Shown: piece after piece, positions 26,243-30,801 of the stretch
How the letters are laid out: each line of letters opens with the position of its first letter
How positions within the stretch are numbered: position 1 is the first letter of the stretch
Assembly (NCBI GenBank): GCA_005877185.1
Contig: VBPQ01000028.1
Coordinates: 1 to 34,662 of the forward strand
Direction: 5' to 3'
Length of the DNA: 34,662 bases
Source of the DNA: Nitrososphaerota archaeon
GTDB lineage: Archaea > Thermoproteota > Nitrososphaeria > Nitrososphaerales > Gagatemarchaeaceae
Notes under the pieces: model-generated
Database searches by the model: none
The model's input: the letters and a program-made list of their open reading frames with translations, nothing else
Told to the model about the DNA's origin: nothing
Made by a program: the position numbers and the translations under genes

Positions 26243-27475
26243 CTAATCCACCTTCGCCATTCTTGCCCTGTCCAACTTTTCGGCCCTCATCAGAAGGGCA
26301 TTTAACTTTGCAGTGCGCTCCGCGCCCACTATCCCGCACTTCATCAGAGCGCACCCAAATCCGATCGCTATATCGGCGAGGTGGGGGTCCTCGTTGTCTC
26401 CCGACCGATGAGAGGCGATGAGTGTCTGTCCCCCTTTCTTGGAGGAGGAGCTGAACTCCTGCGCCTCGCCGAGAGTTCCGACCTGATTCACCTTTACGAT
26501 AACCCCGCTCGTGCTCTTTCGGCGCGCTCCCTCCTCCAGCCTCTCCAAGTTGGTCGTGTAGAGGTCATCACCGACTACGAGTCTCTTCCCCCTGAGCGAG
26601 GAGGTGAGGTCGGCGAAGCCGTCGAAGTCTTCCTCCTGAAGAGGGTCCTCGACGTAGAAGAGGTCAAACCTGTCGCAGAGCTCCGCCACATAGGAGAGCT
26701 GCCCCTCCCTGTCGACAGACTTTCCGGAAGCGCGGTACCAGTACCTCCCGTCCTTCGGGTTGTACAGCGAGCCGGCTGCGAAGTCGACCCCAACCCGAAT
26801 CTTCCTCCCAGACTTGTCGGCGACCTCCCGCGCAGCCTCCGAAGCCAGTTGAATGGCCTCTTCGTCAGTCAGGCCCGGGCACCACCCTCCCTCGTCCCCC
26901 CTCCCGACGGGGTAGGGGAGTCTGCTCGAGAGCTCCCTTCCGACCCTGGAATGAACATCGAAGTTGAGCTGGATTGCCTCCCTCACGGACCTGGCACCGA
27001 GGGGGGCGACGAGTACCTCTTGGATGCTCGGCGACTTCTCGCCCGCGTGCTTCCCTCCGCCGATCACATTCCCCAGCGGGTAGGGGAGCGAGTTGCAGCG
27101 GGGGTCGATTAGACGACAGGGGAGAACTCCTCTCGCGCTCGAGGCGGCGACGGCGGCCGCGAGGCTGATGGAGTATGCCGCCGAGCCACCTATCCTAGAG
27201 TAGTTCGGCGTCCCGTCAATCTTCTTTATGGTGGAGGCGAGTCCCCGGAGGTCGGCCGCGTCCTCGCCGATGACCCTGCGCTTGTAGGTGGAAACAAGCC
27301 TAGCGGTCTCGTCTGGGCCGCCGGGGGAGAAGGGTGCCGCCTCATGAATGCCGCGGCTCGCACCGGAGGGGGAAAGCGCTCTTCCGACCTCGCCGCCGGC
27401 CGAGAGCTCTGCCTCGATTCCCGGGTCGCCCCTCCCGTTGAACGCGACCCGCGCCGAGAGCGCTTGTATGCGCAA
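26243..27475 (-). CDS. eno: Enolase (divergent)
   Basis: SPSGASRGIHEA, IQEVLVAP, DFAAGS, YVEDP, VGDDL, KVNQVGT, SHRSGDNED, MKCG...ERTAKLNALLR. The start is set to TTG 27475, giving (M)RIQALSARVAFNGRGDP. The track's extra 69 aa overlap rpoN. Confidence 0.85.
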   Translation of the reverse strand: MRIQALSARVAFNGRGDPGIEAELSAGGEVGRALSPSGASRGIHEAAPFSPGGPDETARLVSTYKRRVIGEDAADLRGLASTIKKIDGTPNYSRIGGSAAYSISLAAAVAASSARGVLPCRLIDPRCNSLPYPLGNVIGGGKHAGEKSPSIQEVLVAPLGARSVREAIQLNFDVHSRVGRELSSRLPYPVGRGDEGGWCPGLTDEEAIQLASEAAREVADKSGRKIRVGVDFAAGSLYNPKDGRYWYRASGKSVDREGQLSYVAELCDRFDLFYVEDPLQEEDFDGFADLTSSLRGKRLVVGDDLYTTNLERLEEGARRKSTSGVIVKVNQVGTLGEAQEFSSSSKKGGQTLIASHRSGDNEDPHLADIAIGFGCALMKCGIVGAERTAKLNALLMRAEKLDRARMAKVD

Positions 27476-27486
27476 CGCTGAACCAG

Positions 27487-27699
27487 TCAGTAGTTTGTGC
27501 CCTTCTTGCCGAAGAACGGAAGGACCTGGTCGATGACGTCGACGGAGGAGATCAGCATCCGCCTGCAGCAGTACCTCTTCAGCCCGAGTTCGTCTAGAAC
27601 CTTTGCCGGGTCCTCTCCCGCCTTTACCTTCGTCTCGAAGGTAGAAAACTTGTCTCCGACAAGGGAGCCGCAGGTGAAGCACCTAATTGGGATCATCAT
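27487..27699 (-). CDS. rpoN: DNA-directed RNA polymerase subunit N (Rpo10)
   Basis: [11 protein letters not shown]...[11 protein letters not shown]. The start is set to the ATGATG at 27699/27696. Confidence 0.92.
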
Positions 27700-27883
27700 A
27701 GATGGCCCATCCTCGCTCCGTGGTCCCAAATAAGACCTTCTGTCGCTGCATCGCAAGTCTTCCATGCCTCGCGCTGACAAGCCTTCGCATGATCCACTGC
27801 TTGAGTTGCCTCATCTACCGGGGCTGAGAGCTTTCCAGGGAAAACTGCCTTCACCACCCGAAGCATGCGGTTCGGTCATCACC

Positions 27884-28432
27884 TTACCGATAGCTCTTCT
27901 GCCTCTTTCTCCGCGCACCCGGCCCACCAAACTTCTTCGGCTCTGCTTGTCTCGGGTCGCCCGAGAGGAGATATTTATTGTATGCATTCATCCTCTCCCT
28001 CGCCTCGTTTCCTCTTGACTGGTCCACGTACGCCCTCGCGATTGCCATCGCCGCCGCGTCCGCCTGGCCCATGAAGCCCCCGCCCGCAACCTTCACGTCG
28101 ATGTCGAACCTCTCCCTCAACTCTCCCGAGACTAGAGCGGGACCGAGCATGTGCAGCCTCGCCACCTCTGGCTCCCAAAGCTCAAGGATGCGTCCGTTGA
28201 CCCTGACCTTCCCCGTACCCGGATAAATCGAAGCGGTCGCCCTGGCAGTCTTTCTCGCCCCAGAATAAAGCTTGACCCTCTTCGCCTGCAACTTTGGTGG
28301 GACTTTCTTCTTCTCCTCCTTCTTCTCTGGCCGCTTCGGCGCCGGGACCGCCTCCTCCTGAGTCACCTTCCCCTCCTCCTTCTCCTCCTCCTCGCCCCTC
28401 TGACTTTTCGCATATCCCGTTCCTGTCATCAT
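27884..28432 (-). CDS. rps9: 30S ribosomal protein S9 (uS9) with a 47-aa E/K-rich N-terminal extension
   Basis: Core KLYSGARKTARATASIYPGTGKVRVNG...GGPGARRKRQKSYR. The extension MMTGTGYAKSQRGEEEEKEEGKVTQEEAVPAPKRPEKKEEKKKVPPK is in frame. GGAG lies 8 nt upstream of the ATG. The canonical-length alternative start is TTG 28291. Confidence 0.85.
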   Translation of the reverse strand: MMTGTGYAKSQRGEEEEKEEGKVTQEEAVPAPKRPEKKEEKKKVPPKLQAKRVKLYSGARKTARATASIYPGTGKVRVNGRILELWEPEVARLHMLGPALVSGELRERFDIDVKVAGGGFMGQADAAAMAIARAYVDQSRGNEARERMNAYNKYLLSGDPRQAEPKKFGGPGARRKRQKSYR

Positions 28433-28438
28433 GGCAGT
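28292..28438 (-). repeat. 147-bp direct repeat, copy A (5' end of the S9 gene plus 6 nt of leader)
   Basis: Identical to 28916..29062 except for one position (28407 T versus 29031 C, which gives K versus R). Confidence 0.95.
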
Positions 28439-28444
28439 GTCTCC

Positions 28445-29056
28445 TCACTCGCTCCATCCAAGGTTCTTCGAAAGCTCCTTCACGGTGATATAGACCGGGA
28501 TGGGCCTCGTCGCCTGAGCATCTTCAAACCTGGCGAAATTCATCGCCTTCATCTCCTCCGGGACTCCGATGTAGATCCTGAGTCGCTTCATCGCGGCAGC
28601 TCCCTTCGGCTTCCGCCTAGGGACCATCCCCCTCACCATCCTCCTCAGAATCGTGTCTGGTCTCCTGGGGTGGATCGGGCCGTAAATCGGGTTCACCCTG
28701 CTCGCGATTTCTAGCCTCTCCATCCACTGACGGATGACGCTGTTCCTCGCCCCGGAGATAAGCGCCCTCTCAGCGTTCACCACGGTTACACGCTTCCCGA
28801 CGAGGATCAGCTTCGCGACTTTCGAGCAGAGCCTCCCGGCAATCTGGTCTGTAGCGTCGATATTGACCATCCCGCCGAGATGGCTTGCATCGACCATCGC
28901 GACGGGCGGGGGACCCTTTGGTGGGACTTTCTTCTTCTCCTCCTTCTTCTCTGGCCGCTTCGGCGCCGGGACCGCCTCCTCCTGAGTCACCTTCCCCTCC
29001 TCCTTCTCCTCCTCCTCGCCCCTCTGACTTCTCGCATATCCCGTTCCTGTCATCAT
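28445..29056 (-). CDS. rpl13: 50S ribosomal protein L13 (uL13) with the same 47-aa E/K-rich N-terminal extension
   Basis: Core IDATDQIAGRLCSKVAKLILVGKRVTVVNAERALISG. The extension MMTGTGYARSQRGEEEEKEEGKVTQEEAVPAPKRPEKKEEKKKVPPK is in frame. GGGAGGGGGA lies upstream of the ATG. Canonical-length alternative starts are ATG 28897 or 28870. Confidence 0.85.
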   Translation of the reverse strand: MMTGTGYARSQRGEEEEKEEGKVTQEEAVPAPKRPEKKEEKKKVPPKGPPPVAMVDASHLGGMVNIDATDQIAGRLCSKVAKLILVGKRVTVVNAERALISGARNSVIRQWMERLEIASRVNPIYGPIHPRRPDTILRRMVRGMVPRRKPKGAAAMKRLRIYIGVPEEMKAMNFARFEDAQATRPIPVYITVKELSKNLGWSE

Positions 29057-29062
29057 GGCAGT
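28916..29062 (-). repeat. 147-bp direct repeat, copy B (5' end of the L13 gene plus 6 nt of leader)
   Basis: See copy A. The offset between copies is exactly 624 nt. Confidence 0.95.
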
Positions 29063-29158
29063 ATCCCCCTCCCTACACGGTGACGAGCCTTATCCTCAGC
29101 ATCTTGTCTCCCTTTTGAAGGAACGGCTCGACGCTGTTGTTGTACGAAGACGCAGGGT

Positions 29159-29515
29159 TCACTCGACAAGCAGAACACCGCTCCCCTTCGGATACTTCTT
29201 CACGAAATCCTGGACTCCGAGCGCCTGACCTCCAGCATCCTCGATCTTCTTCCTCGCCGCGCCTGAGTAGGAGTAAGCCCCCACGACAAGCTTCTTCGTC
29301 AGGAGACCCGAACCCAAGACCTTCCCCGGGACGAAGACCGCCGTGGCCTTCGAAACGATCCCTGAAATATGGTCGAGGTTCACCTCCACTCTCCTGGAGG
29401 AGGTCGTCAGGAGCATTTCGGAAGCCTCCTTCCAGATCGCCGCCTTCTCCTTCCTCCCTTTCCGCTCGAGCATCACCGCCGCCGATTTGCGGATGGGGTT
29501 TCTAGTGGTCATCAC
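29159..29515 (-). CDS. rpl18e: 50S ribosomal protein L18e
   Basis: TTRNPIRKSAAVMLERKGRKEKAAIWKEASEML...VFVPGKVLGSG...AGGQAL is the L18e pattern. The start is GTG 29515 or ATG 29512, which overlaps the rpoD TGA. Confidence 0.9.
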   Translation of the reverse strand: MMTTRNPIRKSAAVMLERKGRKEKAAIWKEASEMLLTTSSRRVEVNLDHISGIVSKATAVFVPGKVLGSGLLTKKLVVGAYSYSGAARKKIEDAGGQALGVQDFVKKYPKGSGVLLVE

Positions 29516-30144
29516 TTCTCGGCCACGCTAACCTGTATCTCCTTGAGCTTTTCCTCAAGGATCTGGACTGCCTTCACGACGATCTCCCTGGCGGGGAGGC
29601 TTCCCGCTGTTTCGACCTTTAGCAAGAAGCTGTCGCCTGACTTCCCGTCGGTGAGGGAGGCGATGCTGCAGGGCTGCCATTTCGCGTGCTCCTTCCCCCT
29701 GCCCAGCCTCGCATAAGCCTCGAGCTTGACGGCCTGACCAGGCGCCAGCTTGATGAGGGGGATGGTCTCGCTTATCGGACGGATGTCCCTGTCCTCTGAC
29801 ACGAGGTCCCCGGAATAGACGGTCTTTATCTTGTCTTGCGCTGACGCATCCAAGACGAGGAGCACGCGGCACTTGTGGCAGCCCAGAGGAGAGCCGCAGT
29901 CACACTTCTCGGGGAGGATGTACCTCTCGAGGTCAGTCTTGATAGGGACCATCCCGAGCCTGTGGGCGAGAATCTCGTCGTAGAGGACCGACGAGTTCTC
30001 GAGAATCACGACGTCATCGATGGCCATCGAAGGGACCTCGGAGATGCAAAATCTCCTGACGGCGTTCGCGTACGACCTGTCGATCCCGTCGAGCTGAAGG
30101 GTGACCTCGTTGCCGGATTCCTCGATAAGCTTGACCTTAGGCAT
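29512..30144 (-). CDS. rpoD: DNA-directed RNA polymerase subunit D (Rpo3)
   Basis: MPKVKLIEESGNEVTLQLDGIDRSYANAVRRFCISEVPSMAIDDV..., plus the Cys cluster CDCGSPLGCHKC. ATG 30144 is preferred over the track's GTG 30153. Confidence 0.92.
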   Translation of the reverse strand: MPKVKLIEESGNEVTLQLDGIDRSYANAVRRFCISEVPSMAIDDVVILENSSVLYDEILAHRLGMVPIKTDLERYILPEKCDCGSPLGCHKCRVLLVLDASAQDKIKTVYSGDLVSEDRDIRPISETIPLIKLAPGQAVKLEAYARLGRGKEHAKWQPCSIASLTDGKSGDSFLLKVETAGSLPAREIVVKAVQILEEKLKEIQVSVAEK

Positions 30145-30211
30145 CCGCAACACCAGCTGGTTGACTTTTCACCATGCGAAGGGGCACGTTTCGCCGCGAG
30201 CGGGAATCTGG

Positions 30212-30218: not shown

Positions 30219-30262
30219 GGATTGTTCGGCCATCTTGCCTTTTCGCGCTTCGCTCATAACAG

Positions 30263-30270
30263 TTTATAAT
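30263..30270 (+). promoter_or_regulatory. TATA box TTTATAAT for S13-S4-S11
   Basis: Lies 25 nt upstream of ATG 30295, which would give a near-leaderless transcript. Confidence 0.45.
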
Positions 30271-30294
30271 GCAAAGAGGACGGGCTCGACTGAG

Positions 30295-30801
30295 ATGTCG
30301 GAAAGCGTAGAGTTCAAGCACCTGGTGAGGATTCACGGCAAGGACCTCGACGGGGGGAAGAAACTCGTCGTGGCGCTCTCCGATATCAAGGGCGTCGGCG
30401 ACAACTTTGCCGCCAGCACCGTCTCCAAGCTCGGTCTAGACCCTCGTGCGAGGGTTGGCTTCCTCTCCGAGGCTCAGATACAGCTTGTCGAGAAGGCCCT
30501 GCAAGACCCCGCGTCGTTGGGGCTACCTCAGTGGTTCTACAACAGAAGGAGAGACCCAGAGACGGGTGAGAGCAAGCAACTCCTCGGGTCCGACTTGGAC
30601 CTGGCCCTGAAGAACGACATCGACAGGGAGAGTAACCAAAGGTCGTGGAAGGGGATACGTCACGCCCTCGGCTTGAAGGTGAGGGGGCAGAGGACGAGGA
30701 CGACAGGGAGGAAGGGAAGGACAGTCGGGGTGAGGAAGGCCGCGTTGGTCGCAGCCGCGAAGCAGGCGGCGGGCGAAGCCAAGAAGGAGGAGAAGAAGTG
30801 A
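30295..30801 (+). CDS. rps13: 30S ribosomal protein S13 (uS13)
   Basis: MSESVEFKHLVRIHGKDLDGGKKLVVALSDIKGVG...GLKVRGQRTRTTGR. The start is moved to ATG 30295. K/E-rich C-terminal tail. Confidence 0.92.
   Translation: MSESVEFKHLVRIHGKDLDGGKKLVVALSDIKGVGDNFAASTVSKLGLDPRARVGFLSEAQIQLVEKALQDPASLGLPQWFYNRRRDPETGESKQLLGSDLDLALKNDIDRESNQRSWKGIRHALGLKVRGQRTRTTGRKGRTVGVRKAALVAAAKQAAGEAKKEEKK

Follow-up and report, generated by a model that had tools for sequence, protein, structure and literature searches.

A probably translated N-terminal module common to the ribosomal proteins uL13 and uS9 in a small clade of Nitrososphaerales

Why do two adjacent genes for non-homologous ribosomal proteins, uL13 of the large and uS9 of the small subunit, open with nearly the same 141 nucleotides (nt), and does this sequence end up as a tail on both proteins? 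The question arises from a 34,662-nt contig of a Nitrososphaerota archaeon (VBPQ01000028.1; assembly GCA_005877185.1), analysed here at its full length and called the window in the following, which homologue searches with uL13 and uS9 place in the Nitrososphaerota/Nitrososphaerales. A first-pass annotation made from the sequence of the window had pointed to a 147-bp repeat that would give both proteins the same N-terminal extension. In our view, the explanation that best covers the data as a whole is that the 141-nt module is translated into the same tail on uL13 and uS9, that the uS9 copy is the secondary one and that the two copies have been homogenised by gene conversion; we would put the probability of this combined reading at roughly three in four.

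A paired module on two adjacent ribosomal protein genes

Repeat search and base-by-base register comparison gave an in-register match of 153 nt (28292-28444 against 28916-29068) with 98% identity. Its 147-nt core (28292-28438 and 28916-29062) holds a single mismatch, 28407 T versus 29031 C, which on the coding strand reads AAA (Lys) in uS9 and AGA (Arg) in uL13, and two further mismatches (28439 and 28442) fall in the 6 nt past the core. Both open reading frames (ORFs) open with ATGATG and encode MMTGTGYA(R/K)SQRGEEEEKEEGKVTQEEAVPAPKRPEKKEEKKKVPPK, by which 47 codons are added in frame. The repeat, its one-base difference, its coordinates and the peptide had thus been described correctly. Apart from this pair, the only repeat of at least 35 nt in the window is a weak 37-nt pair, and the similarity between the two gene starts is far beyond chance.

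The module lies outside the known domains of both proteins. PF00572 (Ribosomal_L13) covers residues 65-166 of uL13 (E = 1.2e-19) and PF00380 (Ribosomal_S9) residues 58-182 of uS9 (E = 3.4e-33), and the 47-residue module itself had no match in the Pfam search. Among solved structures, the archaeal uL13 chains of 6skf and 4v4n gave E-values of 1e-31 to 1e-34 with an alignment that begins at query residue 66; homology to the solved archaeal uL13 chains sets in at chain residues 2-4, which correspond to query residues 65-66, and the archaeal uS9 chains align from query residues 51-55. None of the solved uL13 or uS9 chains aligns to the first ~50-65 residues, where the tail is without counterpart.

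The pair is not confined to one assembly. The exact uL13 protein of the window occurs on two ENA contigs of other samples, one of which (L001) has both extended genes, and more diverged relatives were found in NCBI metagenomes (L003/L004, L005 and L025), in an ENA forest-soil contig (L026) and in JGI metagenomes (L009-L021); the species-representative metagenome-assembled genomes (MAGs) TA_8 and TA_13 (“Thaumarchaeota archaeon”) carry the module as well. Such contigs come from soils of the Angelo or CRIT18 type. Every module-bearing relative has a homologous copy on uL13, and neither copy is lost in any of the eight contigs that span both. One could still argue that the duplication is an artefact of assembly, given that some contigs end in or beside the repeat (L002, L009, L012 and L018) and that odd deletions occur nearby in some MAG contigs. 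Contig breaks are, however, expected at a genuine 150-nt repeat, and independent ENA, JGI and NCBI assemblies span both copies. Moreover, the two copies within L003, L007, L025 and L026 differ at 13-21 positions and by indels, which errors of collapse or duplication cannot produce, and an artefact can therefore be set aside with near certainty. The Lys/Arg difference is a segregating variant: the JGI contig L018 shares AAA in uS9, and L001 has AGA in both copies, which there form a perfect 150-nt repeat.

Several peculiarities of single contigs were observed at the repeat. L002, L009 and L012 end 15-30 codons into the uS9 module, and L018 starts 44 nt before the module. L007 (MAG TA_8, minus strand ~895-1410) carries a ~97-nt deletion and a frameshift in the uL13 core, L016 a 26-nt deletion and a frameshift in uL13, and in L008:7114-7500 (MAG TA_13) an in-frame deletion joins module residue 24 to ARATAS of uS9, with the conserved KLYSGARKT gone. 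Since the genes of close relatives are intact, the lesions in L007, L016 and L008 are probably errors of assembly or strain mixture rather than pseudogenes of essential genes.

How widely does the module occur? At 90% identity, only 6 uL13 and 14 uS9 clusters carry the extension, and the next-best matches, which are free of it, share 83-87% identity with the window's uL13 and uS9 over the aligned core and measure 146-147 (uL13) and 142-150 (uS9) residues. A degenerate DNA pattern for the N-terminal motif, scanned against 185,579 species genomes (GTDB) and JGI metagenomes, matched only on uL13 and uS9, and an exhaustive phmmer search of 1.84 billion (1.84e9) cluster representatives with the 47-residue peptide returned five matches, all of them uL13 or uS9 fragments. 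The module had been called portable, but these DNA scans and the phmmer search found it on the two adjacent genes only. The DNA pattern demanded Tyr or Phe at residue 7 and Gln at residue 11; it was too narrow, since variants with His or Arg, which it did not catch, turned up among the uS9 homologues, and the clade is therefore broader than the pattern scans suggest. A word-index protein search with eight module variants yielded 8000 low-complexity candidates, none of which scored, the query being unsuitable, and this search is no evidence of absence. Two module-containing database “proteins” (P0121 and P0122) are chimeric or error-laden translations, one of them with the module preceded by ...RRPPRSTLFPYTTLFRS, which we take to be a junk sequence that recurs among database translations; they show that not every cluster representative of the large protein collection is a real protein.

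Translation of the module and properties of the tail

A first argument for translation comes from the way in which the module varies. The first-pass annotation had held that stops or frameshifts in relatives would speak against a coding module; the 23 aligned copies fall into length classes of 38-48 codons that are all in frame, and all indels are multiples of three. It had also suggested a comparison of non-synonymous and synonymous change (dN/dS or omega) with nucleotide conservation, and minimum-change counts gave 11 synonymous against 7 mostly conservative non-synonymous changes in codons 1-13 (ratio 0.17; p = 3e-4 versus neutrality) and 24 against 49 in the rest of the module (ratio 0.48; p = 0.003). 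Pairwise dN/dS of the module ranges from 0.07 to 0.7 and is below 1 in every comparison, the cores showing 0.05-0.15 in most comparisons and up to 0.24. Taken together, these counts strongly support that purifying selection has acted on the peptide.

A second argument lies in the start codons. In uS9, ATGATG is the only start upstream of the core that is conserved in all lineages. The codon at the junction of module and core is TTG in lineages A and B, TCG in C, TTA in D, CCG in L026 and GTG in L027, and the internal GTGs of uS9 are not conserved in position. The view of the TTG at 28291 as the canonical uS9 start is therefore not tenable across the module-bearing lineages. In uL13, the ancestral Met codon is ACG in lineage D. 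Frame, starts and substitution pattern together favour translation, and we regard the in-frame N-terminal extension shared by both genes as genuine. For uL13, the tryptic peptide GPPPVAMVDASHLGGMVNIDATDQIAGR is specific to this protein and would arise only from initiation upstream of Met54. The uL13 module of lineage C (L003:4068, L007 and L019) has TTG instead of ATG as its first codon (TTGATG), and initiation may in that lineage occur at the second ATG, which is invariant.

As for the tail, an N-terminal motif is followed by an acidic run, a middle EAVPxxKR island and a Lys-rich end, which in most copies reads ...KKK[VA]PPK. The conserved N-terminal island is M-M-T-G-T-G-[YFH]-A-R-S-[QRE]-R-[GDS], represented in the window copy by MMTGTGYARSQRG, and both islands persist in uL13 and uS9 also at a divergence of 13-21 nt between the copies; the Glu/Lys runs are of variable length. 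About 50% of the residues are charged, the net charge is +1 to +3 in all variants, and all variants lie on the disordered side of the charge-hydropathy boundary. The tail is probably a disordered polyampholyte, as these predicted properties suggest. We propose that it would hang as a flexible appendage off both subunits and present the conserved motif at the end of a charged linker whose length varies; most likely it would act in cis on solubility or assembly of these basic ribosomal proteins, or as a surface tether that binds rRNA or a partner. The S13 gene of the window (plus strand, 30235-30801) also ends in a Lys/Glu-rich stretch (...GEAKKEEKK), and its positions 30781-30798 share an exact 18-nt match of the GAAGAAGGAGGAGAAGAA type with the module. 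This is probably low-complexity similarity rather than homology, and tails rich in Lys and Glu may be a wider habit of ribosomal proteins in this organism.

A tail can of course be translated without having a selected function, as an accidental product of start-codon shift and duplication that the cell tolerates; its near identity in the window would then be due to recent gene conversion only, and its conservation elsewhere to a short divergence time. The clade is indeed shallow (synonymous divergence, dS, of the cores 0.24-0.67), the Glu/Lys stretches are free to change in both length and sequence, omega is about 0.5 over most of the module and about 0.7 for the window against L013, and Pfam and phmmer found no domain and no homologue beyond uL13 and uS9. 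Against this stand the low omega of the first 13 codons in spite of their 11 synonymous changes, the retention of the N-terminal motif and of EAVPxxKR in both genes at 13-21 nt of divergence, and the fact that neither copy was lost in the eight contigs spanning both genes. On balance, we consider a functionless tail unlikely.

There are a number of points which weigh against a translated and functional module. The case for translation is drawn entirely from comparative sequence, and the omega estimates stem from few sites and a crude minimum-change count. The module has a GAG/AAG triplet periodicity, by which slippage would favour indels of 3n length without any coding constraint. A second frame through the module is open, too, and hence an open frame as such says nothing on translation. 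Every lineage has an internal start in uL13, ATG 28897 or an ATG or GTG close to it, from which a short isoform might conceivably be made. A structure prediction of the extended uL13 with AF2 (AlphaFold2; 28-sequence alignment) assigned residues 1-55 a predicted local distance difference test score (pLDDT) below 35 and no secondary structure, which is weak evidence for disorder because the whole model is of low confidence (mean pLDDT 48.5). Finally, the function of the tail is wholly inferred, and the placement of the N-termini of uL13 and uS9 on the ribosome surface is assumed.

Some of these points would also suit an untranslated leader or regulatory element, which the first-pass annotation had considered as the alternative, with translation starting at TTG 28291 in uS9 and at ATG 28897 or 28870 in uL13. 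The three codons are present as described, some of the internal starts of the window have a Shine-Dalgarno (SD)-like sequence ahead, and a second frame through the module is open as well. Yet the uS9 junction codon is TCG, TTA or CCG elsewhere and no other start is conserved in position, a uS9 initiated at TTG would lack about 7 residues that the outgroups have, and the indels in frame and omega below 1 are those of coding DNA. RNA folding of the module gave no structure (minimum free energy z-score -0.03), and Rfam, with its ribosomal protein leader families, was negative both for 27400-29700 (E <= 1) and for the whole window (gathering score). An untranslated element is thus very improbable. 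On the folding and Rfam results, a structured cis-regulatory leader RNA of the ribosomal protein type was likewise rejected. An archaeal C/D box sRNA was considered because AUGAUGA matches the C-box RUGAUGA, and was rejected since the 153-nt RNA contains no CUGA that could be the D box and has no Rfam match.

Another possibility is a role at the nucleotide level, in which a cassette of ribosome-binding site (RBS) and 5'-coding sequence equalises initiation on uL13 and uS9, or provides a standby or coupling site, the peptide being a by-product. The sequence is unstructured, as an efficient initiation region would be, it is purine-rich with many SD-like GGAGG motifs, and in both genes the stop of the preceding ORF sits just upstream of the SD. 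An SD-like GGAGG lies a few bases upstream of the ACTGCC of uL13, and a GATA(A)CTGCC block is conserved ahead of both copies in relatives; the repeat takes in the non-coding GATACTGCC block that precedes the ATG, and this block has been kept in the two copies and from lineage to lineage. Within codons 1-13, however, synonymous sites vary while the amino acids are kept, and the constraint is therefore on the peptide rather than on the nucleotides. Moreover, copies within a genome differ by up to 21 nt, and 141 nt far exceed what an initiation region needs. We find a purely nucleotide-level function improbable and return to the translated module in the following.

Origin of the second copy and exchange between the copies

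How did the same module come to stand on two genes? In the module-free outgroups L022 and L023, L18e and uL13 overlap by 11 nt, uL13 and uS9 are -13 to +2 nt apart, and uS9 and rpoN overlap by 4 nt. In the module clade, three elements stand before the ancestral uL13 Met, namely a spacer of ~100 nt that follows L18e, the module itself and a linker of 18 nt (GPPPVA), and the extension of uL13 therefore looks like an upstream insertion with a shift of the start codon. The outgroup uS9 begins MVSQSAKQQAKK..., with its native start ~7-12 codons upstream of the TTG position. A precise insertion before a canonical TTG, as first envisaged, does not agree with this; rather, the module took the place of the native start codon of uS9 and of about 7 codons.

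The order of events is indicated by L005 of lineage D, the most divergent one. Its uL13-uS9 gap measures 154 nt (L005:1512-1665) and contains a second version, ~130 nt long and 86-93% identical, of the L18e end (last ~28 nt; KGSGVLLVE*) and of the spacer, the spacer copy having a 37-nt deletion just before the ATG. This gap is best read as a fossil of the original segmental duplication. By retaining the L18e 3' end and the spacer before the uS9 module, L005 strongly supports that the uS9 copy is secondary to that of uL13, in line with the first-pass annotation. The module ends at the same Lys codon in every lineage, before (L/S/P/V)Q(A/G)K in uS9 and before (G/A)PP in uL13, and identical junctions in all lineages argue for one ancestral duplication instead of repeated ones. 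A microhomology-mediated in-frame join via the CCAAA at the module/uS9 junction is not claimed, as its two occurrences are in different codon phases.

The two copies subsequently did not evolve independently in all lineages. At quartet-informative sites, the paralogues of the window group together 12-20 : 0 against each of seven other genomes, and the same within-genome grouping was seen in lineages B and D. Paralogues within a genome differ by 1, 0, 3 and 3 nt in A, B, B' and D, and by 13-21 nt in C (L003/L007), E (L025) and F (L026). Between the close relatives L003 and L007, the informative sites group orthologues throughout (0:14). Since copies within a genome share derived states including synonymous ones (e.g., GGT TAC in L016 and GTG CCC in L005), the pattern bears the signature of gene conversion, which is episodic. 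The near identity of the copies had earlier been ascribed to recent duplication, conversion or selection. Of these, conversion is favoured by the quartet sites; selection for identity is not, because the copies of three lineages differ by 13-21 nt and yet stay intact, and near identity would accordingly be a by-product of conversion.

We therefore propose the following history, whose steps we regard as largely shown. The extension would have been born on uL13 together with the ~100-nt spacer, breaking the ancestral L18e/uL13 overlap. The L18e 3' end, spacer and module would then have been duplicated before uS9, perhaps through tandem doubling of the complete uL13 unit and a subsequent deletion, and the module fused to uS9 at a Lys that corresponds to the K of the native SAKQQAKK, with removal of the native start. 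In most lineages, the duplicated spacer would later have been lost, leaving a gap of 12 nt. The copies, 624 nt apart, would have been homogenised repeatedly by conversion within the operon, very recently so in the lineage of the window, and in other lineages would have diverged freely, both remaining intact.

The features of the locus are given in Table 1. The minus-strand operon has the order rpoD, L18e, uL13, uS9, rpoN and enolase, with S13-S4-S11 divergent, and gene identities were taken from the Pfam tables of homologous contigs. Neither tandem repeats nor tRNAs were found in the window.

Table 1. Positions of the module copies, the genes and the spacers in the window
Feature	Position	Strand	Remark
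rpoD	29512-30153	minus	
L18e	29159-29515	minus	last ~28 nt co-duplicated with the module in lineage D (L005)
L18e-uL13 spacer, 102 nt	29057-29158	minus	absent in module-free relatives; holds a 9-codon upstream ORF
RBS stretch before uL13 ATG (GGGATACTGCC)	29057-29068	minus	ACTGCC exactly as in the uS9 copy
uL13, 203 aa	28445-29056	minus	
Module copy 1, uL13 codons 1-47	28916-29056	minus	ATGATG 29056-29051; in frame with the L13 domain
uL13 linker GPPPVA, 18 nt	28898-28915	minus	
uL13 linker and core to stop	28445-28915	minus	ancestral Met ATG 28897; alignment to 146-147-aa relatives, PF00572
uL13-uS9 spacer, 12 nt (GGAGACACTGCC)	28433-28444	minus	SD-like GGAG and shared ACTGCC
uS9, 182 aa	27884-28432	minus	
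Module copy 2, uS9 codons 1-47	28292-28432	minus	1 base (28407) off copy 1
uS9 core, junction codon TTG (28291-28289) to stop	27884-28291	minus	first ~7 codons of the outgroups missing
rpoN	27487-27699	minus	

The module clade appears to have loosened the operon at several junctions. The L18e-uL13 spacer holds an upstream ORF of 9 codons (MLRIRLVTV*, 29073-29102, minus strand) whose stop abuts the SD of uL13. An upstream ORF of the same length, MK[SG][VI][KE]xVI[VG]*, was observed in lineages A, B and D. Since C, E and F lack its ATG, a conserved leader peptide was rejected, and the ORF is probably not essential. Between uS9 and rpoN, where the nearest module-free relatives show a 4-nt overlap, the window has a non-coding spacer of 184 nt (27700-27883, minus strand). 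It measures 170-184 nt in most module-bearing contigs spanning the junction and 78 and 239 nt in the two contigs of lineage D, with indels that are not multiples of three. At 27728-27733, 28 nt ahead of the ATG of rpoN, stands a conserved TTATTT that may be a new archaeal TATA box, from which rpoN would be transcribed with almost no leader.

Known parallels and wider meaning

The nearest analogy are the ubiquitin fusions of eukaryotes (Ub-eL40/UBA52 and Ub-eS31/RPS27A), with a likeness of arrangement only, the partners being different. In these, one N-terminal moiety stands on one large- and one small-subunit protein and is homogenised by gene conversion; the ubiquitin moiety is dispensable in principle and has been proposed to act as a cis chaperone for ribosomal protein production, and in archaea no N-terminal ubiquitin-like fusion to eS31 or eL40 is known according to the same review (PMC8122580). 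As in the ubiquitin fusions, the module is N-terminal on a protein of each subunit and its copies evolve in concert. Unlike ubiquitin, it is only 38-48 residues long, charged and probably disordered, has no ubiquitin fold and ends in PPK instead of Gly-Gly, and its partners uL13 and uS9 are adjacent in one operon of a tiny clade of uncultivated soil archaea, whereas the ubiquitin fusions are nearly universal. Membership in this family was rejected for want of a Pfam match, a beta-grasp domain and the C-terminal Gly-Gly. A more far-reaching idea is that the tail is a functional counterpart of these fusions in prokaryotes, i.e., a common tag on one protein of each subunit that would couple production or assembly of the two via a shared partner binding MMTGTGYARSQRG, or would be cleaved off and set a peptide free in a constant ratio to the ribosomes made. 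This seems rather doubtful to us. In Firmicutes, the short N-terminal extension of bL27 is cut at a conserved site by a dedicated protease, Prp; the module would not be expected to resemble it in sequence.

Lineage-specific extensions of ribosomal proteins are, as such, a known phenomenon, e.g., the ~55-residue C-terminal helix of eukaryotic uL13/L13a (PMC6800476), and they are the subject of reviews (PMC11764897; PMC9932298). Like these segments, which are often basic or charged and often disordered, the tail is a lineage-restricted addition to a conserved core. It differs in that one DNA-homologous tail occurs on two non-homologous proteins of different subunits, and in being N-terminal and of mixed acidic and basic character. 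Concerted evolution, for its part, is well known from tuf and rRNA genes, and as in other prokaryotic cases the copies within a genome share derived states which the orthologues lack. Here, by contrast, the unit is only ~150 nt long, it is a gene fragment within two unrelated genes, and conversion has lapsed in some lineages. The concerted evolution of intragenomic paralogues in prokaryotes by gene conversion has been surveyed (PMC6053082).

With regard to its position at the 5' end of the L13-S9 gene pair, the module recalls the bacterial rplM-rpsI mRNA leader, which is bound by L13 and is autoregulatory. Unlike that leader, it has no predicted structure and no Rfam match, and its sequence evolves as coding DNA. 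The literature searches gave no description of such an extension shared by uL13 and uS9, which bears out the first-pass annotation, and one DNA-homologous extension common to two non-homologous ribosomal proteins is apparently undescribed.

From a practical point of view, the 150-nt repeat breaks or distorts assemblies of an operon that is a standard phylogenetic marker in these soil archaea, and automatic trimming of the uL13 and uS9 start codons would hide the feature. For the biology of the ribosome, the arrangement would offer an archaeal parallel to the long-puzzling eukaryotic moiety on one large- and one small-subunit protein. Few genes are as conservative as those of the universal ribosomal proteins, and an extension confined to a lineage is usually found on a single one of these proteins. 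In the clade described here, a new tail may have been caught shortly after its birth, which would make it a natural experiment on how extensions of ribosomal proteins arise and spread.

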